Origin: Endomicrobiales bacterium | GTDB lineage: Bacteria; Elusimicrobiota; Endomicrobiia; Endomicrobiales; JALOBY01 | Length of the DNA: 64,000 nucleotides | Assembly: GCA_963796955.1 (NCBI GenBank) | Contig: CAWCNJ010000006.1 | Coordinates: 102,691-166,690, forward strand | Reading direction: 5' to 3' | In this document: positions 3,771 to 60,700 of the stretch, one piece after another | How positions within the stretch are numbered: position 1 is the first letter of the stretch | Layout of the letters: each line of letters opens with the position of its first letter | Translations under genes and position numbers: made by a program | The notes under the pieces: generated by a model | Seen by the model: the letters and a program-made list of their open reading frames with translations, nothing else | Database searches by the model: none | Told to the model about the DNA's origin: nothing

Positions 3771-3797
3771 GGAAATAACATTGTATGTAATATGGAG

Positions 3798-3826: not shown

Positions 3827-3832
3827 GGAAGT

Positions 3833-4972: not shown

Positions 4973-4973
4973 G

Positions 4974-5010
4974 CTGCGCAAAATGAAGCTTTCCATACAC
5001 GACCGGTAGG
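4974..5010 (+). repeat. direct repeat, right copy (orphan typA 3' end, still encodes [11 protein letters not shown])
   Basis: CTGCGCAAAATGAAGCTTTCcATACAcGAcCGGTAgG begins 2 nt after the ATPase stop. It translates to the same 11 aa plus stop as the typA terminus (tcg/tcc, cat/cac, gat/gac, taa/tag). Confidence 0.85.
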
Positions 5011-5040
5011 CTTGAAAGGATTTTCCAGAATAAAAACAAA

Positions 5041-5076
5041 AAAACACACACTTGGAATAATTGGTGTGTGTTTTTT
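5041..5076 (+). terminator. rho-independent terminator (ACACAC hairpin), copy 1
   Basis: CACACAC (5045-5051) pairs with GTGTGTG (5064-5070). The stem is extended by A/T pairs, the loop is 12 nt (TTGGAATAATTG), and TTTTTT follows (5071-5076). It is homologous to 41893-41930. Confidence 0.7.
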
Positions 5077-5088
5077 GTTGCTTTTTTA

Positions 5089-5117
5089 TTGAAAATTCAG
5101 TAAGATTTTGTGTTGCC
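5089..5117 (+). promoter_or_regulatory. conserved upstream box, copy 1 (candidate regulator-binding site)
   Basis: TTGAAAATTCAGTAAGATTTTGTGTTGCC versus TTGAAAATTCAGTAATATTTGTTGTTACC at 41942-41970. The first 15 nt are identical. The box starts 61-62 nt upstream of the -35 hexamer in both copies. Confidence 0.5.
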
Positions 5118-5149
5118 AGCCTGAAAATACTGCAAAACGCATAAAAGAA

Positions 5150-5177
5150 TTGATATTTATAGTATTTAACATATAAT
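5150..5177 (+). promoter_or_regulatory. candidate promoter of giant gene A
   Basis: TTGATA (5150-5155), a 16-nt spacer, then TATAAT (5172-5177). The same hexamers and spacing occur upstream of gene B (42004-42031). Confidence 0.55.
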
Positions 5178-5189
5178 TTATAGTGACGA

Positions 5190-40474: not shown

Positions 40475-40503
40475 TTGACTATGTTAACATTAGTGTGTAT
40501 AAT
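40475..40503 (+). promoter_or_regulatory. near-consensus promoter of ATPase gene 2, geometry implies a leaderless mRNA
   Basis: TTGACT (40475-40480), a 17-nt spacer, then TATAAT (40498-40503). The A of ATG 40510 is the 7th nt after the -10 hexamer, the same geometry as at 3798-3833. Confidence 0.55.
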
Positions 40504-40509
40504 TGTGGT

Positions 40510-41832
40510 ATGGAAAGACACATAGATAGGCTTCTGTCTGAATGGAAAAATGACGATCATAGAAAAGTTTTGCTTTTGCGCGGCGCCAGGCAAGTTGGTA
40601 AAACGTATTCTGTAAGGGCGTTAGGGAAAACTTTTCCGCATTACCTTGAAGTAAACTTTGAGGAAGAAAAACCGGTTAAGGAATTTTTTAAGGGTTCCCT
40701 GAACCCGGAGATGCTTTGTCAGAAACTTTCTGCGTATTTTAAGAAACCTGTAATCCAGGGTAAAACACTCCTCTTTTTCGATGAGATCCAATCCTGCCCG
40801 GAAGCCTTAAGTTCGCTGAGATACTTTTATGAAAAGATGCCTCGTCTTCACTTGATAGCAACCGGCTCATTGCTGGAATTTGCTCTTTCGCAAATACCGG
40901 CACAGGGAGTGGGAAGGATCACTTCATTATATCTCTATCCGATGTCATTTGATGAGTTTTTGATCGCTTTGGATGAACGTAAGCTTACTGAAATAAAAAC
41001 CGGATCCAGTTATAAGTCTCCCCTTGATACCGCGTTCCATGAGAAACTGATCGATTATCTAAAGATTTTTTTTATTATCGGTGGAATGCCTGAGGTAGTA
41101 AAAGAATACGTCGAACGAAAAGATCTGTTAGCATGCCAAAAAAAAATAAATGATTTGATCGAAACGTTTAAAGACGATTTTGCAAAATATAAGAACCGGT
41201 CGCCTTCGCAGAGAATAAATGAGGTTTTCAGCTCGATAGTATATCAGTCCGGAAATAAATTTAAGTATTCAAACGTCGATTCCCATTCTTCGCATATCGC
41301 CATTAAAGATGCTTTAGACATGATCGTTATGGCGGGGCTGGCAATTAAAGTATTCCATACTTCCGCGCAGGGCTTGCCTTTGGGCGCGGGTATCGACAGC
41401 AGAAAGTTCAAAGTTATTCTTTTTGATTTTGGACTTTATCAAAAATTGCTCGGGTTAGACATCTCGTCGATAATTGCGGATAATAATTTTACGGCGCTCA
41501 ATAAAGGAAGCCTTGCGGAATTATTTGTCGGGCTTGAAATTATTAAAAATAATCCATCATCTTTACGAAGTGATTTGTATTATTGGCACAGGGAAAAAAG
41601 AGCAAGCAACGCAGAAGTTGATTATGTTATACAGAAAGGGAATGATATTTTACCGGTTGAGGTAAAATCCGGCTATTCGGGACAAATGCAGAGCCTGAGA
41701 TTATTCATGCAGGAGCACAACTCTAAAATGGGCATAAGAGTGTCGTTGGAAAATTTCGCAAAATTTGAGAAAATAGAAGTATATCCCATGTATGCGGTGA
41801 AAAACATTTTGCAAGGGAATAGGGGGGAGTAA
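40510..41832 (+). CDS. AAA ATPase of the COG1373 / AAA_14 + DUF4143 type with a C-terminal PD-(D/E)xK-like motif (second, divergent copy)
   Basis: 440 aa from ATG 40510 (MERHIDRLL...). The ORF-track start at 40495 is a GTG inside the -10 region. Walker A is GARQVGKTY and Walker B is LFFDEIQ. The C-terminus carries AEVDYVIQKGNDILPVEVKSG. The gene is AT-rich: the sample line 40501-40560 has 22/60 G+C by hand count. Confidence 0.8.
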   Translation: MERHIDRLLSEWKNDDHRKVLLLRGARQVGKTYSVRALGKTFPHYLEVNFEEEKPVKEFFKGSLNPEMLCQKLSAYFKKPVIQGKTLLFFDEIQSCPEALSSLRYFYEKMPRLHLIATGSLLEFALSQIPAQGVGRITSLYLYPMSFDEFLIALDERKLTEIKTGSSYKSPLDTAFHEKLIDYLKIFFIIGGMPEVVKEYVERKDLLACQKKINDLIETFKDDFAKYKNRSPSQRINEVFSSIVYQSGNKFKYSNVDSHSSHIAIKDALDMIVMAGLAIKVFHTSAQGLPLGAGIDSRKFKVILFDFGLYQKLLGLDISSIIADNNFTALNKGSLAELFVGLEIIKNNPSSLRSDLYYWHREKRASNAEVDYVIQKGNDILPVEVKSGYSGQMQSLRLFMQEHNSKMGIRVSLENFAKFEKIEVYPMYAVKNILQGNRGE

Positions 41833-42067: not shown

Positions 42068-45000
42068 ATGTATCACTATTTTCGCATGGAGAACGTCATG
42101 GTCGTTCGATTGTGTTTGCGAACAGTTAACTCTAAAAGCGCTACACTCGCGATAATTTTCGCGGTTGCTGCGCTATTATTTTTGCCCTCCGTTTCAATGG
42201 CTACCAGCGCGCCGACCAATGTAATGCAGCGTGTCAGCGGTTCTGTTACTCTTTCATCGTTCTCATGGACCAGCTCGTCTCTCATAGTCTCTTCGTTCAC
42301 TCTTCCCGGCAGCAGCTCATACTGCATTCAGGCAACCTCCGCCACCGTTAACGACCAACCGGACTGGACAAAGTTATTGTGGGGCACCAAGCGTTCCAGC
42401 GTACTGAACGCCGGCACGACCTGGTATAACTGGCCCGCCCTTACTTCTCCCGGCATTTACTGGTGGCGCATCTGGGCGGAAAGCGCCGGTGTGGCTTCCT
42501 CGACGATCACCGTGCTCTCCGCAGGCGGCCCGGCGGCATTCGCCTACAAGACTGATGTGGACCCGCGGGGCATCGATGTTTCGTCGGGTCTCGGTGTTGA
42601 TTTTGGGGAAGGCAATGGGGTTTTTGGCGGCCTGGCGCTTGGCGATTATGATAATAACGGCACGCTGGATCTTGCCGTGGCCGGTTACACAGGGTCTCAG
42701 ACCATATGCCGCGTTTATAAAGGCAATGGCGATGGAACATTTAACCAGGCGTTCGTTGAGCCGATCACCGGCTGGGGCTCCGATAACGGATCCATCAATT
42801 GGGGCGACTACAATAACGATGGTTCCCTTGACCTGCTGGTGAACGGTAATGGTTCTGATGGCCCGGTACATTTGTACGTTTTTAAAAACAACGGCGACGG
42901 TACGTTCAATTCAACGCCGATAGAGCCGAAACCTGGCTGGGGACTTCACTATGGAAATGCACAATGGGGAGATTATAACAACGACGGTTATCTGGACATA
43001 GTAACAGAGGGCCAGGATTATCCGGCATACCAAAATCGTTTCTATTTGTTCACGAATCTGGGCAATGGAAGCTTCAACCCTGTACCCATAGATCCCGATC
43101 CCAGTGACGCCTCAGGATATTCCACTGCAGGTTTTTTCGATTACAATAATGATGGTTACCTTGATATCTGCATGACCGGGACAGGAAGTTGGGACAACCG
43201 CATTTACAAGAACAACGGTGACGGTACCTTTACCAATTCAGGCAACGATGTGCCCTGGCCGTACGGCGGCGGGTATACCTACGGCGATTACGATAACGAC
43301 GGCAATGTGGATGTGTGCCTGCCCGACGGCATATGGCAGAACAACGGTAATGGCACGTTTTCCGGGGGCGTTCAGTTTGGTGGAAATGAGGGTACACCGG
43401 CTTTAGCAGACATGAATAATGATGGTAAATTGGATGTAGTCGTTGTCGGAAGTTATCAAGGCAACTTCTTAAAGCTGATCGCTAATAATGGCGGCAGCAA
43501 TTTTACGGCGACAGACCTGAGCCCCGCGACCACCGGGCAGAATTTTTCCTACATAGTTTTGGGAGATCTTGACGGTGACGGGGATGCCGACATAGTTGTA
43601 GCCGGCCAGAAGAATGATGGTTCGAACGCCAGGTTCCTGAGCGTATACAAGAATAAGAATTACGAAATGGGCAACACTAATACCGCGCCGCAGCCGCCCG
43701 CCGGTCTTACCGCCCTGTTTAGCTACAACGTTAACAGCGCCAGTATAACGCTGTGCTGGACGCCCGCCCAGTATGATGTGGGCCATTCCTCGTACTCGAT
43801 CTATTACAACGTGGAAATGGCGACCGCGCCCACAACGCTTACCGGCAGCAATATGAGGGTGTCCGGGGCTAACGGCTACAAAATACCCTGGGATTACCCT
43901 TCTGATCAAGGTAATTATATCCGCCCTGCGGTAAAACAGCGGGCAGGCCTTTCCCAAATTACACAGGGATCAAGTTATCAGGTTCCGTATGGCAATTTGC
44001 AGGCGAACGCCACCTATTACTTCCGCGTACAAACTATTGATGCCGGCTTGATGCGCAGTACCTGGTCTGCGGAAAGATCTATTTGTGCTGCGGCGCCGCT
44101 CCCGCCGAACACACCATCCGGGCTTATGCAATGCCTTGTGGGGGGTGCAACGGTATCGTCATACGGCTGGGTCGGCAAGGCGGGTGACGTTATATTTTCA
44201 TCGTTCACGCTTACGGACCCCAACGGCAGTAGCCCGGTTAAATACCGCATTCAAATAACCTCGGTTACCGCCGCCGGCATTGCCCCGGTCTGGAACCAGG
44301 GCATTGCGGTAGACTACACGTCCGGCTGGCTGCCGCAGGGGGCGACCACCTATTACTGGCCTGGCTTGCCGGTCGGATTGTACTGGTGGCAAGTGTATTG
44401 CATAAACGGAAGCAGCGTTGCATCGTCCGTAGCAACCACTCTTGCCGACGGCAACAACCCGGTGCTATCCTACAAGACGAATTTCGACCCTACCGGAATT
44501 GATCTGGTGCCCGGCCTGGGTGTTAACAGCGGTTTTGTCTCTCTCGGTGATTTCGATAACAACGGCACGCTTGATATGGCGGTTATTGGTTATACCGGCT
44601 CAAGCTACATTAGCAAGGTTTATAAAAACAACGGAGACGGGAGTTTTAACCAGATCGCAGTAGCGCCGAGCAACAGCGTGGGCGTTAATGGTTCCGCCGC
44701 CTGGGGTGATTATAATAACGACGGCGACCTGGACCTTGCGGTAAGTGGTTACGATGGCGGCTCTCCACGCCTGCGCATTTACAAAAATAGCGGTCTCGGA
44801 ACATTTAATTCTTCGCTGGACCTGATATCTGGCGGCGGTTTGGGTAGCAGCGGTGACCAAGGGGTTATTGCCTGGGGCGATTTCAACAATGACGGTTATC
44901 TTGACCTTGCAGGCGCAGGAACGGATGGTAGTGCGGAGCGTTTTTATGTGTTCATGAATAATGGCAATGGAAGTTTTAACACAACCCCTGTGCAGCCTGA

Positions 45001-48000
45001 TCCCGGCTGGGGTGTAGACAACTGGTGGGGCGGGATATGTACCGTTGATTGCAACAACGACGGTAACCTGGATATAGCCGTCGCAGGTACCAGTGACGGC
45101 TTCGCGGGCTATGCCAGAATATACAAAGGCAACGGCAACGGGAAATTTAATTCAGCTTTTACCACACCGGACGCGGGTTACAATGGGGGCGACCAGGGGT
45201 ATGCCTCAATGACGTTTGGGGATTATAACCTTGACGGCAACCTGGACGCAGCGGTAGGCGGTGTTGCGGGTTTCAGGGTGGATAAGGGCAATGGCGATGC
45301 GACCTTTACCGATACAACCCTTCAGCCTGACGGCGCCGGCTGGTTTGGCAGCGCCGACGGCGGTGCGGTAATCGCCTGGGCCGATATCAACAACGATGGT
45401 AAGCCCGATATGGTAATTGGCGGGCTTCAGAATGGCAACGGCGGTAAGTTCAGGCTGGAACTGAACAATGGCAATGGCACGTTCACGTCCAGCGATATCC
45501 AGCCCGGCTGGAACAGTTTCTGCAATGTTGCTCTTGGCGACCTGGACAACGACGGCGATGCGGACGCTGTCGTGTCGAATCAAAATGGTAATGACAGCGG
45601 CCACTACTATTTGAAAGCCTTCTTTAACAAAACCCATGAAATGGGTATCGCTACCAATGCGCCCGTCCCGCCGGGAAGTCTTACCTACCAGTCTTCATAC
45701 GCGATAACCGGTTCCACGGTAATGATAACCTGGCCGGCAGCGCAGTACGACGCAACCGCATCGTCGCGCACGCTTTCTTTCCAGGTGGAAATATCAACGG
45801 CTCAAACGACGCTTGCATCGAACAAAAAATTGATATCAGCGCCCTCGTCAGCCGGTGCATTCATAAATACCTGGGCGTCTGAAGGCGATGATTATGGAAC
45901 GTTTTACCGTCCTGCGGCAAAGGTCTGGGGTACGGATCCCTCGCCGAAATTCGGCATTCAGTTGAATTTAAGCACTGCCACCATCCAGGGCGGAACATCG
46001 TACTATTACCGCATACAAACCATTGATGGCAGTCTTTTGCGCAGTACCTGGTCGGTGGAAGGCACACTGTATATGCCCATGGGCACGGCGCCGGCTGCTA
46101 TCACCAACCTTACCGCATTGAAAGGCAACTCCGGTGGCGAGCTGAAACTAAACTGGACCTCCCCCGGCGCGGACGGAACCGCGAACAACATATACGGTGG
46201 TGTCTTTAAAATACGCTATTCCACCTACACCATCGCATCGGCCGGTTTCTGGACGGATGCGGCATCTAACTGGACGGACCCGTTAAACAAATATCAGATA
46301 ACGATACCTACCAACTCCACGCCGAGCACAACACAGTCAACGACGCTTGTAGGGCTTACCCCAGGCGGGACCTATTACGTCCGTGCCTGGGTGAGGGATG
46401 AGGTAGGCGTAGACAGTACCAGCTGGAACGGTAACTGGTCGGCGTTGTCTAATGCCGCGACCGCGTATGCGATGACGGCGACAACCCCGCAGGTGATAAG
46501 CGACCTGGTAGCCACGAACAATGCGGCTCTGGGCGCCGTTAATCTTGCCTGGACGGCACCCGGCGGTAACGGGCAGACCGGCGACCTGAACGCAGGTTCC
46601 GCCTTCAAAATTAAATATTCGACGGTGAACGTTATCACGACCGATAATTTTACGACCATGCAGTCTACTATGGCTATCCAGAGTATAACTATTTCAACGG
46701 TTGCTACTGCCATGAGCAGGCAGAGCTACAACGTAGGGGGGCTTACCAACGGCAAAAAATACTGGTTCGCGATCGAAACAGAAAATTCCCAGGCCGCCTG
46801 GTCGACATGGTACTCTTCAGCCACAGGGGACGGTCATACCACCTACAGCATACTGGCAAGCACGATCTGTTCGTACACTAACCATGCGCCGACAATATCC
46901 AGCCTGGAACAGCTGAACGGTTCAATGGTTTCAATGACTTCGTTTACCTGGATAAATTCCGGCGCTATCATTTCATCGTTCACTATCATCGATACCGACC
47001 TGGGCCAGCAGGTGCGGTTCAATATCCAGATAACGTCAATAACAACTAACGATGCTGCCGATTGGACCAGTATATTCGCCAGCACGCGCTCAGCTTTGAC
47101 CAGCCAGGGCACGTTGAACTATACCTGGCCGGCGTTGAACCCGAATGTGTACTACTGGTGGCGCGCCTGGGCGGAAGATCAATTTGGCTTAACATCAGCT
47201 ACCTCCACCGCGCTGGTAAGCGACGGTGCAGCGGTAATTGCCTATAAAACACCGTATGATCCGCATTTTATAGAACCTACCCCCGGCTGGGGAGTAGGAT
47301 ATTGGGGCGGCGGTACTGCCTGGGGCGACTTTAACGGTGACGGTAATCAGGACATCGCAGTTACCGGCTGCGGCTTTTGGGGCGGGAACGATTACCTCAG
47401 GGTTTATTTGAACAATGGTGACGGCACATTCAGTTCCTCGTATATAGAGCCGCAGATCGGCGTGGGTTTCCGCAGCGGCGCAGTGGCCTGGGGGGATTTT
47501 GATAACGATGGTGATCTGGATCTGGCGGCAACCGGCTCTGTCGACGGTGATGTTACCGGTATACTGAGAGTATACCGGAACAACGGCAATGGAGCTTCAT
47601 TTAGTACAACCTATACGGATGCGCCCGGTTGGGGCGGGTTCTACAGCTCAGTTGCCTGGGGCGATTATGATAACGACGGCAACCTTGATGTAGCTGTAAC
47701 GGGGACGTTGGATGGGACGGCAGCTAACGGAAGATTCAGGATATACCATAACACCGGCAACGGGACTTTTGACACGAATTACCTGCAACCCACGGCCAAT
47801 TGGGGCGTGACTTACAGTAACACAACTCCACGTATTGGCTGGGCGGATTATGAAAATGACGGAGACCTGGACATTGCTGTCTGCGGCACTGATATCAGCA
47901 GCACGAATGTTTTGCGTGTATACAAAAACAACGGCGACGGAACGTTCGCCTCCTCCCCTGCTCTCCTGGTCAATGATGTTATTGATTTTACCTGGAGCGA

Positions 48001-51000
48001 CTATGATAACGACGGTTATCTAGACATTATAGGCGTAACCGCAACCGGCAGGGACGTGAGGGTTTTTCCCAATAACCGGAACGGCACTTTAAACGCGTCC
48101 CCGGTGATGATTCTTCCCGGTCTCAATGTAGATTTTTATGCGCTTTGTGCAGGGGATTATGATAATGATGGCAATGTAGATGTGGTAGTTACGGGCCATG
48201 ATTTGACCAGCGATAACGGTTGTCTCAGGCAATACCGCAGCCTGGGTAACGGAACCTTTGATCAGAAGCCTACAAACCTTCTTCCCGGATGGGGGCCGCG
48301 TGTTTCAGGTTCCCTTGCGTTGTCGGACTACAATAACGATGGCGCTCTTGATATTGCGGTTACGGGTTGTTACGATACGGGGTGGACACCCACCTGGTTC
48401 CGCATCTTCCAAAATATGGAAGCCCAACTTGGCAACGCCAACACCGCCCCGGTGCCGCCAACTATTTCCACCGCGACGTTTAGCTATAGCGCCACCAGAA
48501 GCACATTTACTGTTGCCTGGGCACCGGGATATTACGACGTAGGCCATTCCTCCAACTCGGTTTATTACAATGTGGAAGTCGCCACATATCCTACCACGCT
48601 GCAATCGGACAATAAACGCATCGTAAATTCAAACAAGTTTGTCCAGACTTGGGATTTCGGCAGCCCCAACCTTGGCAGTTACATTCGCCCCGCGGTTTCC
48701 ACCAGCTGGGCCGGTGTTAAAGGCACCCAGATGGTTGGTTATACGATCGCCCCTTCAACAAACAATTATTTGCTTAACGCCACCACCTTCTATTTCCGTG
48801 TGCAAACCATAGATTCAGGACTTATGCGCAGCACCTGGTCTGCTGAATATTCCTGCCTCGCCTCATCGTTTGTTGCTTCACCATCGGCAGGTATTATGAT
48901 CGTAGCAGGGGCAACGGCCAGCAACCGGAACGACTCTGCGGGGACAGCCCTGACTGCCATGTTTGCCCAAGGCGTTCCGGCGGGAGATCTTCTGGTCGCC
49001 GCTGTAGCATATGAAGGTAACGGTGCAATTACCGTTGCTGACGGTAAAGGTCAGACCTGGCAGCCGGCGGTCACGAGATATGATTCCGGTAATACTACAA
49101 CGTGGGCCATATATTACATCTACAACACGCAGGCGCTGTCTTCTACCGCTGAGAAAACCGTAACACTGACGACGGTGTCTGGAACAACGTACCGGTATAT
49201 GGTGATAACTGAGTTTTCTGGGGCTCAGGCGAGTTCTGACCCGCTTGATAAAACTACTTCCGGCAACCGGTCTTTTTCTACAGGGGCGAACGGAATATTC
49301 ACCGATGCCTCGCCTACCCCGTCGGTCAACGGTGAACTGTTATTTTGCAGTCTTATGCAGGATTCTAACACCCATGTACCGCAAACAGCCGGGACAGATT
49401 TTACGATGGTAACGAACGGTATTGTACCCAATGATAGTATCAGTTCCAACTATCATTTGCATACTGAATACTATGTACAGCCGACCGCTGCCGCTCATCT
49501 GGGAACGTATACCTGTTCAGGTTCAGACGCCGATACGTACGCTATAGCGATGGCTACGTTCAAGCCTGCAACAGCCGGCGATACTACTCCCCCTGCGGCG
49601 ATAACGAACATTTCAGCCGTTACCGGTCTCTCGGGCGGCAGTATAAATCTAACTTGGACTGCGCCCGGGGATGACGGCATTTCCGGCGCCATTTCCGGCG
49701 GCGCTTTCAAGATCCGCTACTCGTCCTATACCCCCACCTCTTGGACGGATGCCGCTTCCAACTGGACTGACTACCTGAATAAATACCAGATCACCTTGTC
49801 CACCAATGCCACACCGGGCGCCTGGCAGGCACGTACTCTTACGGGCTTAACCGAAGGTGTTACCTATTACATCCGCGCCTGGAGCCGCGACGAAGTTGGT
49901 GTAGACAGCACCAGCTGGAACGGCAACTGGTCGACGTTATCGAACGGGGCGACAGCCTGGGCAACGGTTTCGCCCAAGCCGTCCTGCATAACGGACCTTG
50001 TTGCGACAACTAACGTTGCCGCGAACGGCATAACCCTTACCTGGACCGCTCCCGGCGATAACGGTCAAACCGGCAGTCTTACGGCCGGCTCCGTATTCAA
50101 AATAGAGTACTCTACGGTGAACGTTATCAACGGCGCAGATTTTGCATTATTGCCCTCCACCATGGTGATCCAGAGCGTGACGATATCTACAACAACAACT
50201 GCCATGAGCCGGCAGAGCTATACCCTTCCTTCGTTGAGCAATAACACAAAATACTGGTGCGCCATAAAGACCTGCAATGCCGAAGGGGGATGGTCGGTGT
50301 GGCAATCATCCGCAGATGTCGCGGCGTATAACATGCTTGCCGCCACGGTCTGTGTAAACGGGCCGAATAGCCCCCCGAACGCGCCGGCGAACCTGGTGCA
50401 ATACGACGGCTCTTTTGTAAATCTCTCGTCGTTCACCTGGACGAATTCAAGCACGATCATCTCATCGTTCACGCTTACCGACCCTGACGCAGGCCAGCAG
50501 GTGAAATACCGTTTACAGATCACCACTGTTTCCAGTAACGGCCTTGCCATCTGGACGAACGGGTATTTTATAGACTATACCTCGCCGCTTTTGAATCAGG
50601 GCACCACCACTTATTACTGGCCCACGCTGACGGCCGGTAAGTTCTACTGGTGGCGCGTCTGGGCGATAGATGCGGCAAATGCAACATCTTCCACTTCGAC
50701 CGTGCTCAGCTCGGGTGGCCCGGCGGTGGTTGCCTGGAATACGCCCTTCGACCCGAAGTACCGGGAACCCATGCCGGGTGACGGTATCGGCGGCGGCGGC
50801 TCCAGTCTTGCCTGGGGCGACTTCGACGGCGACGGGTATCAGGATCTTGCCATACTTGGCAACAGCAATAGCAGCGGTGACATAACCAAAGTGTTTCCCG
50901 GCAAGAGCGACGGTACATTCAACGCGGCGGTAACCTTGCCTTCGGGGCAAACGTTCAGCTCTGGCGGTGTGGCCTGGGGAGATTTTAACAACGACGGTTT

Positions 51001-51529
51001 GCTTGACCTGGCCATTGCCGGCAAGAATAGTACTACGGGTAATGGCTCAGTGCGCGTGTACCGAAATACCGGAGGCGCCTTCAGCGCCACATTTGTGTCG
51101 CCGGAAACCGTGGGATACAGCTTCTCCAATCTGGCCTGGGGCGACTATGACAATGACGGCTGCCTCGACCTGGTCGTAGCGGGGTGGACCGATAGCTATG
51201 CAATCGTGTCGCGGGTATATCACAATAATGGCAATGCCGGGTTCACCGTCGCCTACAATAATAACTTTGGAGTCGCCTCTACTGATGTCGGTTCTGTGCC
51301 CCCTCGCTTCAGTGGCTGGATGTTGAAAATGATGGCGATCTGGATCTCGCGATGGCCGGCAACGCGGGCGGCACCTACAGTATGTCAATATACCGCAACC
51401 AGAACAGTACCTTTGCGTTCGGCTCGGCCCCGGTCTTCGAATACGACCCTGTCTCCGCCGCCGCCTGGGGCGATTTTAACAACGACGGTTTTATGGATTT
51501 CGCGGGCGTTGACTCTAATTCCCGGGTAG
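42068..51529 (+). CDS. giant FG-GAP/VCBS + FN3-like repeat surface protein, gene B, N-terminal fragment (frame lost at 51295/51296)
   Basis: 3153-aa ORF. The likely true start is ATG 42098, with GGAGA 5 nt upstream (MVVRLCLRTVNSKSATLAIIFAVAALLFLPSVSMA|TS). It has three complete supermodules, a unique 235-aa insert and part of a fourth propeller. The last ~78 codons (VPPRFSGWMLKMM...) are out of frame. Confidence 0.9.
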   Translation: MYHYFRMENVMVVRLCLRTVNSKSATLAIIFAVAALLFLPSVSMATSAPTNVMQRVSGSVTLSSFSWTSSSLIVSSFTLPGSSSYCIQATSATVNDQPDWTKLLWGTKRSSVLNAGTTWYNWPALTSPGIYWWRIWAESAGVASSTITVLSAGGPAAFAYKTDVDPRGIDVSSGLGVDFGEGNGVFGGLALGDYDNNGTLDLAVAGYTGSQTICRVYKGNGDGTFNQAFVEPITGWGSDNGSINWGDYNNDGSLDLLVNGNGSDGPVHLYVFKNNGDGTFNSTPIEPKPGWGLHYGNAQWGDYNNDGYLDIVTEGQDYPAYQNRFYLFTNLGNGSFNPVPIDPDPSDASGYSTAGFFDYNNDGYLDICMTGTGSWDNRIYKNNGDGTFTNSGNDVPWPYGGGYTYGDYDNDGNVDVCLPDGIWQNNGNGTFSGGVQFGGNEGTPALADMNNDGKLDVVVVGSYQGNFLKLIANNGGSNFTATDLSPATTGQNFSYIVLGDLDGDGDADIVVAGQKNDGSNARFLSVYKNKNYEMGNTNTAPQPPAGLTALFSYNVNSASITLCWTPAQYDVGHSSYSIYYNVEMATAPTTLTGSNMRVSGANGYKIPWDYPSDQGNYIRPAVKQRAGLSQITQGSSYQVPYGNLQANATYYFRVQTIDAGLMRSTWSAERSICAAAPLPPNTPSGLMQCLVGGATVSSYGWVGKAGDVIFSSFTLTDPNGSSPVKYRIQITSVTAAGIAPVWNQGIAVDYTSGWLPQGATTYYWPGLPVGLYWWQVYCINGSSVASSVATTLADGNNPVLSYKTNFDPTGIDLVPGLGVNSGFVSLGDFDNNGTLDMAVIGYTGSSYISKVYKNNGDGSFNQIAVAPSNSVGVNGSAAWGDYNNDGDLDLAVSGYDGGSPRLRIYKNSGLGTFNSSLDLISGGGLGSSGDQGVIAWGDFNNDGYLDLAGAGTDGSAERFYVFMNNGNGSFNTTPVQPDPGWGVDNWWGGICTVDCNNDGNLDIAVAGTSDGFAGYARIYKGNGNGKFNSAFTTPDAGYNGGDQGYASMTFGDYNLDGNLDAAVGGVAGFRVDKGNGDATFTDTTLQPDGAGWFGSADGGAVIAWADINNDGKPDMVIGGLQNGNGGKFRLELNNGNGTFTSSDIQPGWNSFCNVALGDLDNDGDADAVVSNQNGNDSGHYYLKAFFNKTHEMGIATNAPVPPGSLTYQSSYAITGSTVMITWPAAQYDATASSRTLSFQVEISTAQTTLASNKKLISAPSSAGAFINTWASEGDDYGTFYRPAAKVWGTDPSPKFGIQLNLSTATIQGGTSYYYRIQTIDGSLLRSTWSVEGTLYMPMGTAPAAITNLTALKGNSGGELKLNWTSPGADGTANNIYGGVFKIRYSTYTIASAGFWTDAASNWTDPLNKYQITIPTNSTPSTTQSTTLVGLTPGGTYYVRAWVRDEVGVDSTSWNGNWSALSNAATAYAMTATTPQVISDLVATNNAALGAVNLAWTAPGGNGQTGDLNAGSAFKIKYSTVNVITTDNFTTMQSTMAIQSITISTVATAMSRQSYNVGGLTNGKKYWFAIETENSQAAWSTWYSSATGDGHTTYSILASTICSYTNHAPTISSLEQLNGSMVSMTSFTWINSGAIISSFTIIDTDLGQQVRFNIQITSITTNDAADWTSIFASTRSALTSQGTLNYTWPALNPNVYYWWRAWAEDQFGLTSATSTALVSDGAAVIAYKTPYDPHFIEPTPGWGVGYWGGGTAWGDFNGDGNQDIAVTGCGFWGGNDYLRVYLNNGDGTFSSSYIEPQIGVGFRSGAVAWGDFDNDGDLDLAATGSVDGDVTGILRVYRNNGNGASFSTTYTDAPGWGGFYSSVAWGDYDNDGNLDVAVTGTLDGTAANGRFRIYHNTGNGTFDTNYLQPTANWGVTYSNTTPRIGWADYENDGDLDIAVCGTDISSTNVLRVYKNNGDGTFASSPALLVNDVIDFTWSDYDNDGYLDIIGVTATGRDVRVFPNNRNGTLNASPVMILPGLNVDFYALCAGDYDNDGNVDVVVTGHDLTSDNGCLRQYRSLGNGTFDQKPTNLLPGWGPRVSGSLALSDYNNDGALDIAVTGCYDTGWTPTWFRIFQNMEAQLGNANTAPVPPTISTATFSYSATRSTFTVAWAPGYYDVGHSSNSVYYNVEVATYPTTLQSDNKRIVNSNKFVQTWDFGSPNLGSYIRPAVSTSWAGVKGTQMVGYTIAPSTNNYLLNATTFYFRVQTIDSGLMRSTWSAEYSCLASSFVASPSAGIMIVAGATASNRNDSAGTALTAMFAQGVPAGDLLVAAVAYEGNGAITVADGKGQTWQPAVTRYDSGNTTTWAIYYIYNTQALSSTAEKTVTLTTVSGTTYRYMVITEFSGAQASSDPLDKTTSGNRSFSTGANGIFTDASPTPSVNGELLFCSLMQDSNTHVPQTAGTDFTMVTNGIVPNDSISSNYHLHTEYYVQPTAAAHLGTYTCSGSDADTYAIAMATFKPATAGDTTPPAAITNISAVTGLSGGSINLTWTAPGDDGISGAISGGAFKIRYSSYTPTSWTDAASNWTDYLNKYQITLSTNATPGAWQARTLTGLTEGVTYYIRAWSRDEVGVDSTSWNGNWSTLSNGATAWATVSPKPSCITDLVATTNVAANGITLTWTAPGDNGQTGSLTAGSVFKIEYSTVNVINGADFALLPSTMVIQSVTISTTTTAMSRQSYTLPSLSNNTKYWCAIKTCNAEGGWSVWQSSADVAAYNMLAATVCVNGPNSPPNAPANLVQYDGSFVNLSSFTWTNSSTIISSFTLTDPDAGQQVKYRLQITTVSSNGLAIWTNGYFIDYTSPLLNQGTTTYYWPTLTAGKFYWWRVWAIDAANATSSTSTVLSSGGPAVVAWNTPFDPKYREPMPGDGIGGGGSSLAWGDFDGDGYQDLAILGNSNSSGDITKVFPGKSDGTFNAAVTLPSGQTFSSGGVAWGDFNNDGLLDLAIAGKNSTTGNGSVRVYRNTGGAFSATFVSPETVGYSFSNLAWGDYDNDGCLDLVVAGWTDSYAIVSRVYHNNGNAGFTVAYNNNFGVASTDVGSVPPRFSGWMLKMMAIWISRWPATRAAPTVCQYTATRTVPLRSARPRSSNTTLSPPPPGAILTTTVLWISRALTLIPG
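42530..43660 (+). repeat. FG-GAP/VCBS beta-propeller B1
   Basis: Runs from LALGDYDNNGTLDLAV to IVLGDLDGDGDADIVV. Ends at YKNKNYEMGNTNT. Confidence 0.8.
44455..45635 (+). repeat. FG-GAP/VCBS beta-propeller B2
   Basis: Runs from VSLGDFDNNGTLDMAV to VALGDLDNDGDADAVV. Ends at FNKTHEMGIATNA. Confidence 0.8.
47227..48415 (+). repeat. FG-GAP/VCBS beta-propeller B3
   Basis: Runs from TAWGDFNGDGNQDIAV to LALSDYNNDGALDIAV. Ends at FQNMEAQLGNANT. Confidence 0.8.
48868..49580 (+). other. unique ~235-aa insert domain of unknown function in gene B
   Basis: FVASPSAGIMIVAGATASNRNDSAGTALTAMFAQGVPAGDLLVAAVAYEGNGAITVADGKGQTWQPAV...YAIAMATFKPATAG. It has no FG-GAP or FN3 landmarks and no second copy in the window. 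It lies between a QYD module and an FN3-D module. Confidence 0.6.
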
Positions 51530-51743
51530 CTGTTTTCCTCAACACCGGTAATTTCACCTTCAATACCGTGTCTCCCATTGTACTGACATCCACTATCAAC
51601 AATTTCACGAACGTCGCCGCGGGTGACGTTGATAATGACGGCCTCTCGGACGTATTTGTCGCCGGCAGCACCGGCACGGCATTGTATTACAATCGTAATG
51701 GAAGTTTTGTAAATCAACCCACCTTTCCATTCTGGCCGCTGTA
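50714..51743 (+). repeat. 1,030-bp tract near-identical to 5682..6712 in gene A
   Basis: See 5682..6712. This copy carries the 1-nt deletion that breaks gene B. Confidence 0.9.
51295..51296 (+). other. frameshift site 2 (one T missing relative to the gene A copy)
   Basis: Gene A reads ggt tct tgt gcc ccc tcg ctt cag tgg ctg gat (6258-6290). Gene B reads ggt tct gtg ccc cct cgc ttc. Restoring the T gives GSCAPSLQWLDVENDGDLDLAMAG and runs straight into ORF 51352..61947. Confidence 0.9.
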
Positions 51744-54700
51744 CGCAGACGAAAGCATTGCCCTTGCCGATTATAACGCCGACGGCGCTTTGGATGCCGC
51801 CTTTGCCGGCGGCGATCTTCTCGGTGCCGACTACTTCAGGGTTTTTAACGGCAAGCAGACGAATACCGCGCCGGTCCCTCCCAGCCCCAGCGTTACGCTT
51901 ACCTATAGCGGGGCGGCGGTCAACCGCAGTACCTTTACCGTTACCTGGCCGCCCTCTCAGTATGATACGGGCAATTCTTCCAACTCGCTCTATTACCAGG
52001 TTGAGGTTTCCACTTTCCCGACCGCGCTTTCCGGCGATGCCCTGCGCATAACGACGGGAGGGAGGTACCAGAATCCGTGGAATTTCGGCACGCCCGGCCT
52101 GGGTGGTTTTGTGCGTCCGGCGGTTTCCACTAGCTGGGCCGGCGTAACGGGCAGCCAGATGCAGGGGTTCATGTTCAGCCCCTCAACGGCGACGCTGGCG
52201 GCGAGTACCAGTTTCTACTTCCGCGTGCAGACGATAGACGCGGGCCTTAAGCGCAGTACCTGGTCGGCGGAGTATATGTGCGTTATTGCCACCTACGCGC
52301 CGTCCGGCGTTACCGACCTGACTGCTACTACTAATATCGGCATAAATGGAATATCACTGGCCTGGACGGCGCCGGGCGACCACGCGCTTTCCGGGAATCT
52401 TACCAGCGGCTCGCAGTTCAAGATAGAGTACTCATCCGTCGGAATAATCAATACGGCAAATTTCGACTCTCCGCCCGCGAACCTCGCGGCAACCGCTATC
52501 TACATCTCCACCGTTACTACGGCGCGCAGCCGCCAGAGTTGGAGCGTGCCGAACCTGCAGAACAATACGGTCTACTGGTTCGCCGTTAAAACCGAGAATA
52601 GCGCGGGCCTGTGGTCGGTGTGGCAGTCGTCCGCGGACGTGGCAACATACAACCTGCAAGCCAGCACCCGCTGTGTTGCTGTTAACCATGCCCCGAACGC
52701 GCCGGCGAACCTGGTGCAATACGATGGCTCTTTTGTAAGCCTCTCGTCGTTCACCTGGACGAATTCAAGCACGATCATTTCATCCTTCACTCTTACCGAC
52801 CCGGATGCAGGCCAGCAGGTGAAATACTGTTTGCAGATCACCACCGTTTCCAGCGCCGGTCTTGCCACTTGGACGAGCGGCTATTTTTGGAATTATACTT
52901 CCCCGCTTTTGAACCAGGGCACAACCACGTATTACTGGCCCACACTGACGGCCGGTAAGTTCTACTGGTGGCGCGTCTGGGCGATAGACGCGGCAAATGC
53001 GACATCTTCCACTTCTACCGCCCTCAGTTCGGGCGGGGCCGCAGTATTAACCTATAAAACCGATTTCGACCCTAATGGAATACGCATTGTACCCGGCCTC
53101 GGTTTATACGGAAATGACGTTTATAGCCAGCTTGCCCTTGGTGACTTTGACAACAACGGCACCCTTGACCTTGCTGTTACTGGTGAGGATATTAATTCGC
53201 TTTTTGATTTTAGAGTATACTCAGGCAATGGCGATGGAACATTCAACTTCTTGCCTGCACTGCGTAATGATGGTACCTATTTCGCATCGTTGGCATGGGG
53301 TGATTACAATAATGACGGCGATCTGGATATCGCGCTCAGTGCGGGTAACATAGAAAACACCATAGGACTGTATGTTTACCGTAACAAGGGAAACGGCACA
53401 TTTGATACTACGCCGCTGCAGCCTGCCGGAGCCGGTGTCGGTATAGGCGGCGGGCTTGCCTGGGGAGATTTTAACAACGACGGCTTTTTAGATCTTGCTG
53501 CCTCCGGGTGGATAAATGCAACGACTGAAAAATTCTACATTTACAAAAACAATTGCAACGGCAGCTTCAATACAACCCCCGTTCAGCCTGACAGCGCAAT
53601 GCTATTTGGCGGCTACGAAGGTTCGCCCATCAGCTGCGCGGACTTTAACAATGACGGTCTTTTGGATATAAGTGTGTGTGCGGATTATTGGCAGTCCAGG
53701 CTTTACAAGAATGACGGTGACGGCACATTTACGATAACGAACGTCGGCGTTACGGATGTACCGTACGGCCAGGCCTACGCGTTTGGCGATTATGATAATG
53801 ACGGCAGCCTGGACATCGCATCTCCCGGCGGAGTATATCAGAACAACGGTGCCGGATCATTTTCAATGGGGCCAGCCCTTCCGTCTAATGGCGACTATTA
53901 CTGCCCTTCAAGCTGGGCGGATTTTAATAATGATGGTAAGCTGGATCTTGTTGAAAGCGGCGGGTTCGATTATGAATATTTGATCGAGCTGACAAACAAC
54001 GGCAGTAGTGGTTTTTCCGGGACTGAAATAATGCCTGGTTTCGGGCTCGGCGATGCGTCATTAGCTGTCGGGGATGTGGATAACGATGGCGATACCGATA
54101 TTATTGCCAGTGGCGGTAACGGCGCTGCCAATTTGCTTTTGTTCAAGAATAAAAACAGTGAGATGGGCAATGCCAACATCGCTCCAGTGCCGCCGTCAGG
54201 CTTGTCATACCAGTCTTCATATTTCATATCAAATTCAACCGTCATTATAACCTGGCCTGCCGCCCAATATGATACCGGCATGTCATCGCGCACATTGTCC
54301 TTTCAGGTGGTTATCGCTTCCGCCCCCATGATGCTTGCCTCTAACCAGTCGCTGATAACATCGCCGGGGGCTTTTATAACCACCTGGGCGGCCGAGGCAG
54401 ACGGTTTCGGCACCTTTAACCGCCCCGTGGCAAAGATCTGGGGCTCGGATATATCGCCCAAGTTCGGTTATCAGCTGAATTTAACCACAGCATCTATTAC
54501 CGGCGACACGTCGTACTACTACCGCGTGCAGACGATAGACGGAGACCTCAAGCGCAGTACCTGGTCTGCGGAAAGTAAGTTGTATATACCCATGGGGCCT
54601 GCGCCGGCAGCCATTACGAACCTTACAGCGCTTACCGGCGCTTCCGGCGGAGAAATAAAGCTGAGCTGGACGTTCCCTGGCGCGGACGGCACAGCGAACA

Positions 54701-57700
54701 ACCTAGTCGGCGGCGTATTTAAGATACGCTACTCATCCTACACTACCGGGTCAGCCGGGTTCTGGACCGATGCGGCCTCTAACTGGGTCGATCAGGTCAA
54801 TAAATATCAGGTAACCATAGCAACGAATGCCACATTGAGCAAAACGCAATCAGCCACGCTGGTCGGTTTAACTCCCGGCGTAACGTATTATGCCCGCGCC
54901 TGGACCCGCGACGAGGTTGGCGTTGACAGTACCAGCTGGAACGGTAACTGGTCGGCGTTGTCTAACGGCGCGACCGCCTGGGCGATGACGGCAACATCAC
55001 CGCAGGTAGTAAGCGACCTGGTGGCTACGAACAACAGCGCGATAGGCGCCGTTAAGCTTACCTGGACGGCCCCCGGCGGCAACGGGCAGACCGGCGACCT
55101 GAACGCAGGTTCCGCCTTTAAGATAGAATATTCGACGGTCAATGTCATCACCACCAATAACTTTACCGCAATGCAGTCCACCATGGCTATCCAGAGCATA
55201 ACTATTTCCACGGTTACCAGGGCCATGACCACGCAAACCTATAACGTCGGCGGTCTGACGAACAATAAGCAATACTGGTTTGCGATCGAGACGGAAAACT
55301 CCCAGGGCAACTGGTCTACATGGTATTCCTCCGCCACGGGAGACACACACACTACCTACAATATACTCGCAAGCACCGTTTGTTCCTTCGCCAATCATCA
55401 GCCCGCTATATCCAATCTGGAACAGTTGAATGGCTCACTGGTCTCCATGACTTCGTTTACCTGGACGAACTCCGGCACGCTTATGTCGTCTTTCACGATC
55501 AGCGATGCTGATTACGGCCAGCAGGTGCGGTTTGTTGTACAAATAACTTCCGCCACTAACAACGCCGGCGCCGCTAACTGGGCAACGCTATTCCAAACCG
55601 CCCGCTCAGGCCTGATTCCTCAGGGAACAACGACGTATATTTGGCCCGCATTGAACCCGAACGCATTCTACTGGTGGCGGGCGTGGGCGGAAGATTCGTA
55701 CGGGTTATCCTCCACCACATCAACGGCGCTCGTCAGCGGCGGCTCGGCCGTGCTCGCCTACAAAACACCGTTCAATCCGGCTTTTATAGAGCCGCAGCCC
55801 GGCTGGGGAATTGGTTGGCATGGCCCGGCCGTTTCATGGGGAGATTTCAACGGTGACGGTTATCAAGACCTTGCCATCGGCGGTAACGATAGCAACAATC
55901 AGTATATGAGGGTGTACATGAACAACGGCGCGGGGGGCTTTAATTCTTATGTGGAGCCGCAGCCCGGCCACGGTGTGCGTCTGGGGGAGATGCAGTGGGG
56001 AGACTTTAATAACGACGGAAAACTGGACCTGGCCGTTACCGGTTACGATGGTGATCCAGGACTTTGCCGGGTTTATATAAACGCAGGCAACGGCACATTC
56101 AGTGCAAGTTATGTGGACGCAACCTCGGGCTGGGGAAGGTATTACGGCAACCTTGCCATGGGAGATTATAACAACGACGGCAACCTGGACCTGGCCGTTA
56201 TCGGTACCGCCGACATAAACCCGCTGCGCGTTTTCAGGATATACCGTAATAAAGGCGACGGCACCTTTGATACCAATTTTGTCTCGCCGCAATCAGGCTG
56301 GGGTATCAGCGGTGATGACAGTAACAGCACGGATTATACCCGTGTGGCCTGGGGTGACTTTGAGAACGACGGCGACCTGGATATAGCCACTTGCGGTATT
56401 GATACCAACAACACGCAGGTTATGCGCGTTTACAAAAATAACGGGGACGGTTCCTTTAATTCGACTGCGGCTTTGATAACGAACACCGTCTATGATCTGG
56501 CCTGGGGCGATTACGATAACGACGGCTTTCTGGATGTTATTGCCGCATCGGCAACGACCATCTGCGCCTTCCGAAATAACGGCAACGGCACATTGAACGC
56601 AACGCCGGTAAATATACTGGGGAATCTTAACATTGCCAACACCAGGATATCCCTGGGAGATTATGATAACGACGGCAATATCGATATAGCTGCTACCGGC
56701 CAGGATATCGCGTCGGGTCAAGGTATGCTGCGGTTTTACCACAGCCTCGGCAACGGTAACTTCGATCAGTCCCCTGTGAATATACTGCCAGGGTGGGGAA
56801 TGTACCAATGCGGGGCGATGGCGCTGGCGGATTATGACAATGACGGAGGTATTGATATCGCTGTAGCCGGCCAGGGAAGCGGAACGGCCACCGATTGTTA
56901 TCTGCGCGTCTTCAATGATATGCAGGCACAGCTCGGGAACGCAAATACTGCGCCGACGGCGCCGGCCATATCCAGTATGACCTTCAGCTACAGTGCGCCA
57001 CAGAGCACTTTCACTATAACCTGGCTGCCCGGCCAGTACGATGTAAGCCATTCATCCAATTCAGTTTATTATGAGCTGGCAGTTTCAACATTTTCCACAA
57101 GCCTTTCTGCCGACAGTAAACGGCTTACGACTGGCGGCTGCTACCAGTCTCCCTGGAATTTCGGAACCCCGAACCTGGGCAGTTTCATCCGTCCCGCTGT
57201 CTCCACCAACTGGGCAGGCGTTAAGGGCACCCAGATGGTTGGCTATACCATTACGCCCTCAACAAATGATTATCTGCTGAACGCCACAACGTTCTATTTC
57301 CGAGTTCAGACCATAGACTCGGGACTAACGCGCAGCGCCTGGTCTTCGGAATATACCTGTCTTGCGTCGTCTTACGTCGCCCTTCCGGGAACGCCCGCCG
57401 GGATAACCGACTTGACCGCGGCAAACAATTCTTCCATCAGCGGGATCTCACTGGTCTGGACCGCCACCGGCGATAGCGGTCAGAGCGGTAATCTTACCAG
57501 CGGTTCTGTGTTTAAAGTTGAATATTCCACGGTAGGGATATTGACCACCGGCAATTTTGATTCGCCGCCGGCCGGTCTTGCGGTAACGACGGTAAATATC
57601 TCAACGACCGCGACCGCTATGAGCCGGCAAAGCTACAACCTGCCCGGATTGCTTACCAACACGACGTATTGGTTCGCTATCAAGACCGAGAACGGCGAAG

Positions 57701-60700
57701 GCCAGTGGTCCACCTGGCAGTCTTCCTCGGACGCGGCGGCCTACAATCTTCGAGCCAGTACGGTATGTAAGTACACAAATTCCGCCCCTCTGGCGCCCTC
57801 AGGCCTGGTACAGTACGACGGTTCAATGGTAAGCCTTTCGTCGTTCACCTGGACGAACTCTAGCACGATCATCTCATCCTTCACGCTTACCGACCCGGAT
57901 GCAGGCCAGCAGGTGAAATACTGTTTGCAGATCACCACCGTTTCCAGCGCCGGTCTTGCCACTTGGACGAGCGGCTATTTTTGGAATTATACTTCCCCGC
58001 TTTTGAACCAGGGCACGACCACCTATTACTGGCCCGCGCTTACAGCAGGTAATTACTACTGGTGGCGCGTTTGGGCGATAGATGCGTTCGGCGCGACCTC
58101 CTCAACCACCACGGCACTGATGAGCGGCGGCGCGCCGGTGTTTGCCTACAAAACGCACTTTGATCCCGTTGCCAGAAATATAATCAACGGTTTAAGTGTG
58201 GCCAATGCATTTGCCGCTCTTGGCGATTTTGACGGTAACGGCACGCTGGATCTGGCGATCACCGGCAATACGGGTTCCGGCTTTGTCAGCAGGGTTTATA
58301 AAAATAACGGTGACGGGAGTTTTAACCAGGCGCCGGTATCCATACCGGTCATCCCCCTCGGCAGCGGCTTGTCCGACGGAGCGGTAGCCTGGGGCGATTT
58401 TGACAACGATGGGGATCTGGATATCGCAATTAACGGCACGCTCAATCCCGGCAACAGGTTGTTTGTTTTCCGCGGTAACGGTAATGGAACATTCAACCCG
58501 TCGCCGATATACCCAAACCCAGGGTGGGGCGATACCGGAATGATCACCTGGGCTGATTTCAACAATGACGGCTACCTGGACCTTGCTGCTTCGGGATACG
58601 ACGGATCGGCAGGCCACAATTATATATTCCTGAACAACCGCCTTGGCGATTTTAATCACACTCCCGTGGAGCCTGATGCCACCTGGGGGCCGGCTAGCTT
58701 TGACAACTGGGTTTCCGCCGCCGATTTTAACAATGACGGTAATCTTGATCTTGCTGTCGTCGGCACCGATGCAGGATACAACGGGCATGCAAGGATATAT
58801 AAAGGTAATGGCAATGGTACCTTTAACGCTTCCTATGTATCGCTTGATGCCAACAACGATCAGGGCTATTCTTCCATCACCTTCGGTGACTATAACCTTG
58901 ACGGCAACCTGGATGTCGAGGTGGGTGGTAACGATCTGTTCGCGGTGAACACGAATAACGGTAACGGTACTTTCGGAACGGCTGTAACGCCTGAAGGCGG
59001 GGCCGGCGGCGGGCAGTTCGGTAACAATTTTGGCGGTGTATTTGCTGCCTGGGCTGATATTAACAACGACGGTAAACCCGATATGGTGGTCAGCGGGTAT
59101 CGGGAAACGAATTCGGGCATGGTTCGTCTTGAGCTGAACAACGGTAATGGAACATTCACTCCCACTGAGATCCAGCCGGCATTGCAAAGTTTCTGTCAGG
59201 TAGCACTTGGTGACCTGGATAACGACGGCGATGTCGACGCGGTAATGTTGGGTTCTTCTCCAAATTATTATCTTGCGGCCTTCTTCAACAAGAACAGTGA
59301 TATGGGGAATGCGAATACCATCCCTGTGCCGCCCGCAGGCTTGTCGTATCAGTCTTCGTATAACATAACGAATTCAACGGTTGTCGTTACCTGGCCTGCG
59401 GCGCAGTATGACGCAGGTATGTCTTCCCGCACCCTTTCTTTCCAGGTCGTCATTGCATCCGTGCCCATGACGCTCGCAACCGACCAGACGAAGATAGCAT
59501 CGCCGGGCGCGTTTTTAACTACCTGGGTCTCTCAGGGCGACGGATTCGGGGCGTTTAACCGGCCGAACTTCAGCTACCGGTTGAACCTGAGCACCGCGGG
59601 AATTACCGCAGATACCTCCTATTACTACCGTGTACAGACGATAGACGGCAGCCTTGCGCGCAGCACCTGGTCTGCGGAAAGTAAGTTGTATATGCCTATG
59701 GGCCTGGCGCCTGCTGCCATTACCAACCTTACCGCATTGAAAGGCAATTCCGGCGGCGAACTGAAACTAAGCTGGACCTCTCCGGGCGCGGACGGCACCG
59801 CGAACAACATATACGGCGGCGTCTTTAAAATACGCTATTCCACCTACACCATCGCATCAGCCGGCTTCTGGACGGACGCGGCAACCAACTGGACGGATCC
59901 GGTAAACAAATATCAGATAACGATACCCACAAATTCTGTGCCGAGCGTAACGCAGTCGGCAACCCTTGTCGGGCTTACTCCCGGCGGGACGTATTACATC
60001 TGCGCCTGGACGAGGGATGAAGTGGGTGTGGACAGTACCAGCTGGAACGGTAACTGGTCGGCGTTGTCCAACGGCGCAACTGCCTGGGCTATGACGGCAA
60101 CTGCGCCGCAGGTGGTAAGCGACCTGGTGGCTGTCAACAATGCCGCATTGGGCGTCATCAATCTTACCTGGACTGCTCCGGGCGGTAACGGACAAACGGG
60201 CGACCTGAACGCAGGTTCCGCCTTCAAGATAGAATATTCGACGGTGAACGTTATAACTACCAATAATTTTACCGTCATGCAGTCCACTATGGCTATCCAG
60301 AGCATAACTATTTCAACGGTAACTACTGCCATGAGCAGGCAAAGCTATAACGTAGGAGGGCTTACCAGCGGCAAACAATACTGGTTCGCGATCGAAACGG
60401 AAAATTCCCAAGCCGCCTGGTCTACGTGGTACTCTTCAGCTACAGGGGACGGTCATACCACCTACAACATACTGGCAAGCACGATCTGTTCATACACCAA
60501 CCATGCGCCAACCATATCCAGTCTGGAACAGTTGAACGGTTCGATGGTGTCAATGTCTTCGTTTACCTGGACGAATGCCGCTACGATCATTTCGTTGTTC
60601 ACTATCAGGGATACCGACCTGGGCCAGCAGGAGAAATATCATATACAAATATCTACGGTTATAAGTGCGTCGGGTCTTGCCACCTGGACGAGCGGGTATT

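Follow-up and report, generated by a model that had tools for sequence, protein, structure and literature searches.

Probable Recent Gene Conversion of a Propeller Module Between Two Giant Modular Genes of an Endomicrobiales Bacterium

Introduction

Gene conversion among paralogous repeats is already well known, and its ectopic form between duplicated bacterial genes is the subject of a review by Santoyo and Romero (2005, as cited in PMC8256042). Here, we describe a near-identical 1-kb tract that is common to two giant modular genes, A and B, of an Endomicrobiales bacterium and that is probably the product of a recent gene conversion. The process as such would be an ordinary one, and it is the pair of giant genes that is unusual. 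Both genes lie in a stretch of 64,000 nucleotides (GenBank assembly GCA_963796955.1, contig CAWCNJ010000006.1, positions 102,691 to 166,690 of the forward strand), which was analyzed as a whole and is referred to as the window. For the Salmonella tuf genes, Paulsson et al. (2017, PMC5485169) state that conversion proceeds in either direction until it is limited by the bounds of homology. Like at tufA/tufB, the event proposed for the window would be a non-reciprocal homogenisation on one chromosome, and it has left a contiguous run of identity that is bounded by homology, as seen at the 5′ edge of the tract. Unlike at tufA/tufB, it concerns one module of very long genes, the prior divergence of ~9% that we infer is much higher than for tuf, the event is deduced from a single assembly, and one copy is frameshifted.

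The closest described analogue is domain-spanning conversion in the modules of assembly-line polyketide synthases (PKS), where domain-spanning regions of high identity, 0.3–1.4 kb in length, have been ascribed to gene conversion in 93% of the surveyed modular clusters (Nivina et al., 2021, PMC8256042). The two cases have in common that the genes are giant and modular, that regions of >80% identity link modules of the same locus and that the patches are of mixed age. They differ in that the modules considered here are of the adhesin type (propeller, fn3 and immunoglobulin (Ig)-like) and not enzymatic, and in that they come from another phylum. The same work defines GRINS (genetic repeats with intense nucleotide skews) as regions of >500 bp that are >80% identical within a locus and have mean absolute GC and TA skews of >0.15. 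With 1031 bp at 99.8% identity, the tract exceeds the limits for length and identity. Its mean absolute skews, calculated in 150-nt windows with a step of 30, are 0.084–0.087 for GC and 0.088–0.089 for TA (gene-wide 0.105 and 0.085, respectively), and since both are below 0.15, an assignment to GRINS was rejected.

Giant repetitive extracellular proteins from uncultivated bacteria have been reported by West-Roberts et al. (2023, bioRxiv 10.1101/2023.11.21.568195). These proteins of >10,000 codons are built from repeats of fibronectin-like domains and of domains that form beta-propellers, they are anchored at the N-terminus, and they are presumed to act in adhesion. In all of these traits they resemble the proteins of the present locus, and the preprint names repeats as a cause of assembly fragmentation. 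Its focus is on Omnitrophota Archaeovorins and on dockerin-type proteins, the domain sets of which are different, whereas FG-GAP/fn3 arrays in a genome that is Elusimicrobiota-like by its BipA/TypA relatives are dealt with here. A search for terms in the preprint returned no mention of recombination or frameshifts. The present locus marks a fragile spot for the assembly and annotation of giant genes in metagenome-assembled genomes: the open reading frames (ORFs) that are listed for it are pieces of two larger genes, and of the two differences that separate the tract copies, one is a frameshift on which the intactness of gene B depends.

Antigenic variation from cassettes at Neisseria pilE/pilS and Borrelia vlsE also proceeds by non-reciprocal gene conversion between paralogs of surface-protein genes. 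Unlike these systems, the window lacks an array of silent cassettes, a dedicated signal for recombination and a gene for a recombinase, and both partners are parts of full-length genes. Nothing in the window indicates a programmed high-frequency process or points to a dedicated programmed mechanism.

The Shared Tract and Its Boundaries

All positions are given in window numbering, and the genes, tract copies and exchange patches all lie on the + strand. Genes A and B have the same orientation, and the two tract copies are 45 kb apart. When the whole window was compared with itself by BLASTN, the top non-self high-scoring segment pair linked 5682–6844 to 50714–51875 with 98.8% identity over 1163 bp (13 mismatches and 1 gap). 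The second-best pair anywhere in the window reached 92.6% across 432 bp, with the majority of module pairs falling between 70 and 86% nucleotide identity. In a base-by-base alignment, the near-identical part comprises 5682–6712 in gene A (copy A, 1031 bp) and 50714–51743 in gene B (copy B, 1030 bp). These copies are ~99.8–99.9% identical over 1031 bp and differ by one substitution and one single-nucleotide indel, which leaves exact runs of 453, 128, and 449 bp. Both analyses thus agree with the original prediction of a near-identical 1-kb tract in the two genes, and the predicted count of one substitution and one T indel was right as well. The substitution had been placed at 6136, which is off by one, since it is located at 6135 (AAC, Asn) in copy A and at 51167 (GAC, Asp) in copy B. 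As for the indel, copy A reads TT at 6263–6264 and copy B only one T, at 51295. What had escaped the prediction is the effect of this indel on gene B: the deletion of the T shifts the frame, the ORF 42068–51529 stops 78 codons later (51527–51529), and the rest of the gene continues as ORF 51352–61947. The deletion within the tract therefore accounts for the splitting of gene B into two listed ORFs.

The 5′ edge of the tract is abrupt and lies at the propeller junction, as had been predicted. Identity opens at the first Gly codon of GGPAVVAWNTPFDP, which is also where GGPAVV, the conserved motif at the start of propellers, begins, and upstream of 5682 genes A and B align at only ~60% on the nucleotide and ~50% on the amino acid level. 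The preceding modules had been described as clearly different sub-types. They are indeed divergent to this degree, but they are Ig-like modules that are homologous to each other and old. At the 3′ side, a gradual decay had been described; instead, the identity falls in two steps, from ~99.9% to 91% over 132 bp and then, in collinear alignment, to ~65–70% from ~6845 onward. The 91% flank (6713–6844 in gene A and 51744–51875 in gene B, as aligned) contains 12 substitutions in 132 bp, six of them synonymous and six non-synonymous, and covers what is left of blade 7 together with the propeller's end; the tract itself ends inside blade 7 and not at a module junction. With 12 of the 13 substitutions crowded into the last 132 of the 1163 aligned base pairs, the distribution is highly uneven (binomial P = 5e-11). 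The next module of gene A (6835–7253) is 90% identical to gene B 48444–48862, with a proportion of synonymous differences (pS) of 0.31. This match in gene B is not collinear with the tract, which points to an older mosaic exchange.

The Encoded Propeller and the Age of the Tract

The tract codes for blades 1–6 and the start of blade 7 of a FG-GAP (integrin-alpha-type) seven-bladed beta-propeller. It corresponds to residues 165–508 of gene A, where it belongs to the first propeller, and to residues 2883–3226 of the frame-corrected gene B, where it belongs to the fourth. The domain yields Pfam matches to FG-GAP_3 and FG-GAP and has seven GDxDxDG-like motifs (DxDxDG loops of the Ca-binding type) at a spacing of ~54 amino acids. 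Its AlphaFold2 model is all-beta with 27 strands (predicted local distance difference test score 87.3, predicted template modeling score 0.89), and the best Foldseek matches in the PDB are CRTAC1, the Psathyrella PVL lectin and integrin alpha propellers. Judged from the family matches, the motifs and the predicted fold, the domain is a FG-GAP seven-bladed propeller, a structured domain that probably binds a ligand. A GG[PA]AV..YKT.FDP-like motif opens the propeller modules throughout both genes. When 40 propellers were aligned, no fewer than 90% of them had Asp in the column of the only substitution. As Asp is near-universal at this position, the Asn of copy A is the derived allele.

The tract stands out from all other module pairs of the locus. 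Among the 20 propellers compared, the pair that carries the tract (A165–B2883) has a protein identity of 98%, the next best pair has 76%, and the other pairs of both genes range from 31 to 76%. Its partner excepted, no propeller of the locus shares more than 44% identity with that of the tract. Neither gene thus contains a close relative of the tract propeller, and as its scores to modules of gene B are only slightly above those to modules of gene A, no direction of transfer was called. The spacing of the propellers is regular in both genes and the tract sits in a normal propeller slot; this regularity implies that it replaces a propeller and does not constitute an inserted extra one. The tract shows 0 differences at 243 synonymous sites; in the adjoining 3′ flank of 132 bp, by comparison, pS amounts to 0.20, and other patches of high identity have values of 0.31 and 0.40. 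The absence of any synonymous difference next to a flank with a pS of 0.20 means that selection on the protein cannot explain the identity of the tract.

Similar, smaller patches are present elsewhere in the giant genes. Within gene A, 27167–27472 matches 31526–31831 with 2 differences in 306 bp (synonymous substitutions per synonymous site, dS, 0.015); this patch has a sharp 5′ edge exactly at a junction of propeller end and linker (..FQ|NMEAQMG..) and is followed by sequence of lower identity. Within gene B, 52792–52922 and 57886–58016 match exactly over 131 bp. These patches show the same two-tier architecture as the tract, which suggests that module exchange is recurrent in these genes. 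In addition, a 90% identical pair of Ig-like modules was observed in gene B (50373–50715 and 52691–53033), the 3′ end of which coincides with the 5′ boundary of the tract.

Proposed History of the Exchange

Overall, a very recent non-reciprocal homologous exchange, i.e., an ectopic gene conversion, between paralogous propeller modules is the best explanation for these data, and we assign it a probability of roughly 0.6. The near-identity is embedded in homology of lower identity and reaches the synonymous sites, as is characteristic of gene conversion. The signature of gene conversion that had been claimed for the tract is thus borne out by the synonymous positions, by the older block in which the tract is nested, by the replaced module slot and by the similar smaller patches. 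The exchange might have taken place in two stages. In a first stage, an older exchange or duplication would have put the same propeller subtype into genes A and B. The ~91% stretch at 6713–6844 would be a remnant of this stage, and the neighboring 90% patch may be of similar age. In a second stage, a RecA-type conversion tract would have begun inside this older block and ended at 6712 within blade 7, while its other side would have extended as far 5′ as the homology was usable, to 5682. The identity of only ~60% between the Ig-like modules upstream would be the reason why the 5′ edge is sharp and falls on the domain junction. Since then, copy A would have gained the GAC>AAC change at the conserved Asp, and copy B would have lost the T and with it the frame of gene B, unless the loss is a consensus error.

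Several observations weigh against this history. The three frame breaks of the giant genes (see the next section) indicate that the genes or their consensus are imperfect in this repetitive region. An inferred prior identity of ~91% is low for efficient recombination by RecA in a background that is proficient in mismatch repair. Searches for independent copies gave no support: a protein search with the tract against 5.8 billion proteins returned no ortholog (best identity 46%), the representative genomes of GTDB contained no ortholog of the locus (best match 40%), and two wobble-degenerate DNA patterns had 0 matches in the metagenomes of the Joint Genome Institute (JGI). As neither an ortholog nor a second assembly of the locus was found, the non-reciprocity, the direction and the timing of the exchange are inferred only. 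Finally, the end of the independent contig discussed below speaks for two left contexts in its read set only for the first 31 nt of the tract and does not show that the whole kilobase is shared. A query made of the chimeric flanks retrieved only another fragment of the same contig and a JGI fragment of 48% identity, and the closest retrieved relative of the BipA neighborhood (83% amino acid identity) has no giant genes downstream of BipA.

If the exchange is real, both giant proteins would display the same predicted ligand-binding propeller, and the locus would provide a clean example of how a whole domain is exchanged between the giant modular genes of surface proteins, here in an uncultivated phylum. 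It would illustrate how mosaicism persists in giant genes and by what route the same binding module ends up in different giant proteins. The exchange would also have created a new 1-kb direct repeat through which the 45 kb that separate the two copies could be deleted or fused.

The Giant Genes and Their Frame Breaks

Gene A (5190–38653) is listed as two ORFs, 5190–12233 and 12200–38653, but represents one gene of 11,154 amino acids once one base is restored between 12209 and 12210. The sequence reads GCA|GGG at this point, whereas the paralogous junction near 63170 has GTATGG, so that one base is missing in gene A. This break may reflect a genuine deletion that pseudogenises the gene, or else an error of the consensus. 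The predicted product starts with a hydrophobic anchor or signal at the N-terminus, which is followed by at least 11 FG-GAP propellers that alternate with fn3/Ig-like modules. At the C-terminus (37850–38650), a CHU_C-like domain was observed at 24.8 bits, just under the Pfam cut-off of 27 bits. CHU_C is a type-B sorting domain of type IX secretion, and, if real, it would be an unexpected sorting signal for an Elusimicrobiota-like genome.

Gene B (42068–64000) is a paralog of gene A and leaves the window at its 3′ end. The hydrophobic N-termini of both gene products are homologous (46% amino acid identity), and gene B is built like gene A from FG-GAP propellers that alternate with fn3 and Ig-like modules. 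Apart from the break at 51295, gene B is interrupted near 61931–61940, where the reading GNIRLWGC* is opposed to ..GDVNNDGVLD in the +1 frame, which then stays open to the end of the window. The remainder beyond the window corresponds to the 1217-amino-acid protein P0242 on the same contig of 191,110 bp, and the length of gene B amounts to at least ~7,800 amino acids. Together, the two giant genes carry three frame breaks over ~55 kb of sequence, and one of these lies within the tract. All seven non-giant genes of the window (~7.4 kb) are intact.

Alternative Explanations

The alternative that survives best is an artefact of the assembly or of the consensus, which we consider unlikely. According to this explanation, a diverged propeller (e.g., of ~90% identity) was overwritten by mis-threading of the assembly path or by polishing with multi-mapping reads, and the two remaining differences are consensus errors or strain variants. 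An independent view on this question is given by the Logan contig L001 (run ERR11718638, 2122 bp), which comes from a different pipeline and is 100% identical to 3590–5711 of the window. Its right end at 5711 lies exactly 30 nt, i.e., k−1, inside the tract. When two different sequences precede the 31-mer 5682–5712 in the reads, a k = 31 graph is forced to break at 5711, and L001 stops where the graph has to branch if the junction of gene B is present in the reads. This end therefore supports the 5′ junction in the raw data and argues against an assembler artefact, but it bears on the first 31 nt only and not on the identity of the whole kilobase. The further Logan fragments predicted from the k = 31 graph (the B variant of the tract up to the stop at 51529, and fragments that end at the stops at 12233 and 61947) were not recorded. 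The partial product of L001, which served as a positive control, was absent from the protein collection as well, and hence this result is uninformative. At its left end (3590), L001 breaks off within the BipA gene, at a place for which no repeat of ≥31 nt internal to the window exists; a coverage gap, variation among strains or a conserved 31-mer that occurs in another organism as well are possible reasons for it.

The nature of the region makes an artefact conceivable nevertheless. The 191-kb contig is derived from a metagenome and holds ~55 kb of modular repeats, the exact runs of 453 and 449 bp exceed typical read lengths and are hard to phase with short inserts, and one of the two differences is a frame-breaking 1-nt deletion, to which two further frame breaks in the giant genes are added. 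However, copy-paste errors usually lead to 100% identity and not to one private change per copy, with that of copy A located at a conserved Asp. Mis-threading of ~90% identical paralogs needs k-mers that are shared at both ends, it would orphan the true path, and a nested two-tier structure is hard to obtain in this way. The smaller patches elsewhere in the giant genes and the intactness of the seven other genes of the window do not fit an artefact either.

It could also be that the module was recently copied along some route besides homologous conversion, e.g., by an illegitimate or microhomology-mediated replacement at the GGPAV junction or by unequal crossing-over followed by a deletion, so that no closely similar resident propeller was required beforehand. 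We regard this as rather improbable. In its favor, the 5′ edge lies exactly on the domain junction with no nucleotide homology upstream of it, other patches end on module junctions as well, and a close previous target is inferred and not seen, given that no other propeller of the locus exceeds 44% identity to the subtype. The collinear 132 bp at 91%, with their synonymous and non-synonymous changes, speak against such a copy and are most simply explained by an older shared block in which the recent tract is nested. Furthermore, the 3′ end of the tract is off the junction, inside blade 7, and the order and spacing of the modules are undisturbed.

The tract might also be regarded as the youngest product of a frequent, junction-delimited exchange that continually reshuffles or homogenises the ~20 propeller/Ig supermodules of the locus. 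Such a process would be comparable to the module conversion of PKS genes, with giant adhesins as its target, and the new direct repeat might in addition mediate reversible 45-kb deletion or fusion variants, with an A–B chimeric gene, in the population. This broader view appears doubtful to us. Still less probable is that a third, unseen paralog elsewhere on the chromosome overwrote both copies, which would still be gene conversion, without an exchange between A and B. Gene B extends past the window on a contig of 191 kb, and the locus is a mosaic with several donor–recipient relationships, which leaves room for such a donor; yet the same end points (5682 and 6712) would have had to arise twice, once in each gene, and P0242, the only other piece of the contig seen, has a different propeller subtype (C432) that is 39–40% identical. 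Old duplicates that are held identical by purifying selection on a structured and, by prediction, probably ligand-binding propeller can practically be dismissed, since the synonymous-site count (0/243, compared to a pS of 0.20 in the flank and 0.31–0.40 in other pairs) refutes it, the sole substitution is non-synonymous at a conserved Asp, and one copy is frameshifted.

Mobile Elements and Neighboring Genes

The window was also inspected for elements that generate repeats by other means. Pfam scans of the window turned up no ORF for a transposase, a reverse transcriptase or a recombinase, and neither the 14 unassigned minus-strand ORFs of ≥150 amino acids nor the scanned plus-strand genes gave a match to a reverse transcriptase or another relevant Pfam family. 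No inverted repeats were found, and the antisense ORF has no family match. A diversity-generating retroelement typically has a reverse transcriptase gene nearby and a template/variable repeat pair of roughly 100–150 bp, the members of which differ mostly at adenines of the template. Such an element was rejected, as no reverse transcriptase was found and as a repeat of 1 kb with a single substitution has the wrong size. A mobile element (insertion sequence, miniature inverted-repeat transposable element, intron or intein) was rejected as well, because there are no termini and no mobility gene, and because the tract, which is in frame, shares homology with the other 18 propellers and takes up one of the regular slots in the module order.

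Directly upstream of each giant gene, a gene for an AAA_14/DUF4143 ATPase is located (3833–4972 and 40495–41832). The two ATPases are only 28% identical, which rules out a recent duplication of a cassette consisting of ATPase gene and giant gene. Finally, between the ABC-F and BipA genes at 1113–1485, there is an ORF of ~125 amino acids (MPKVILVADDDENIRTS...), which falls below the minimum of 150 amino acids of the ORF list and is therefore not included in it; this ORF is intact and resembles a receiver domain.

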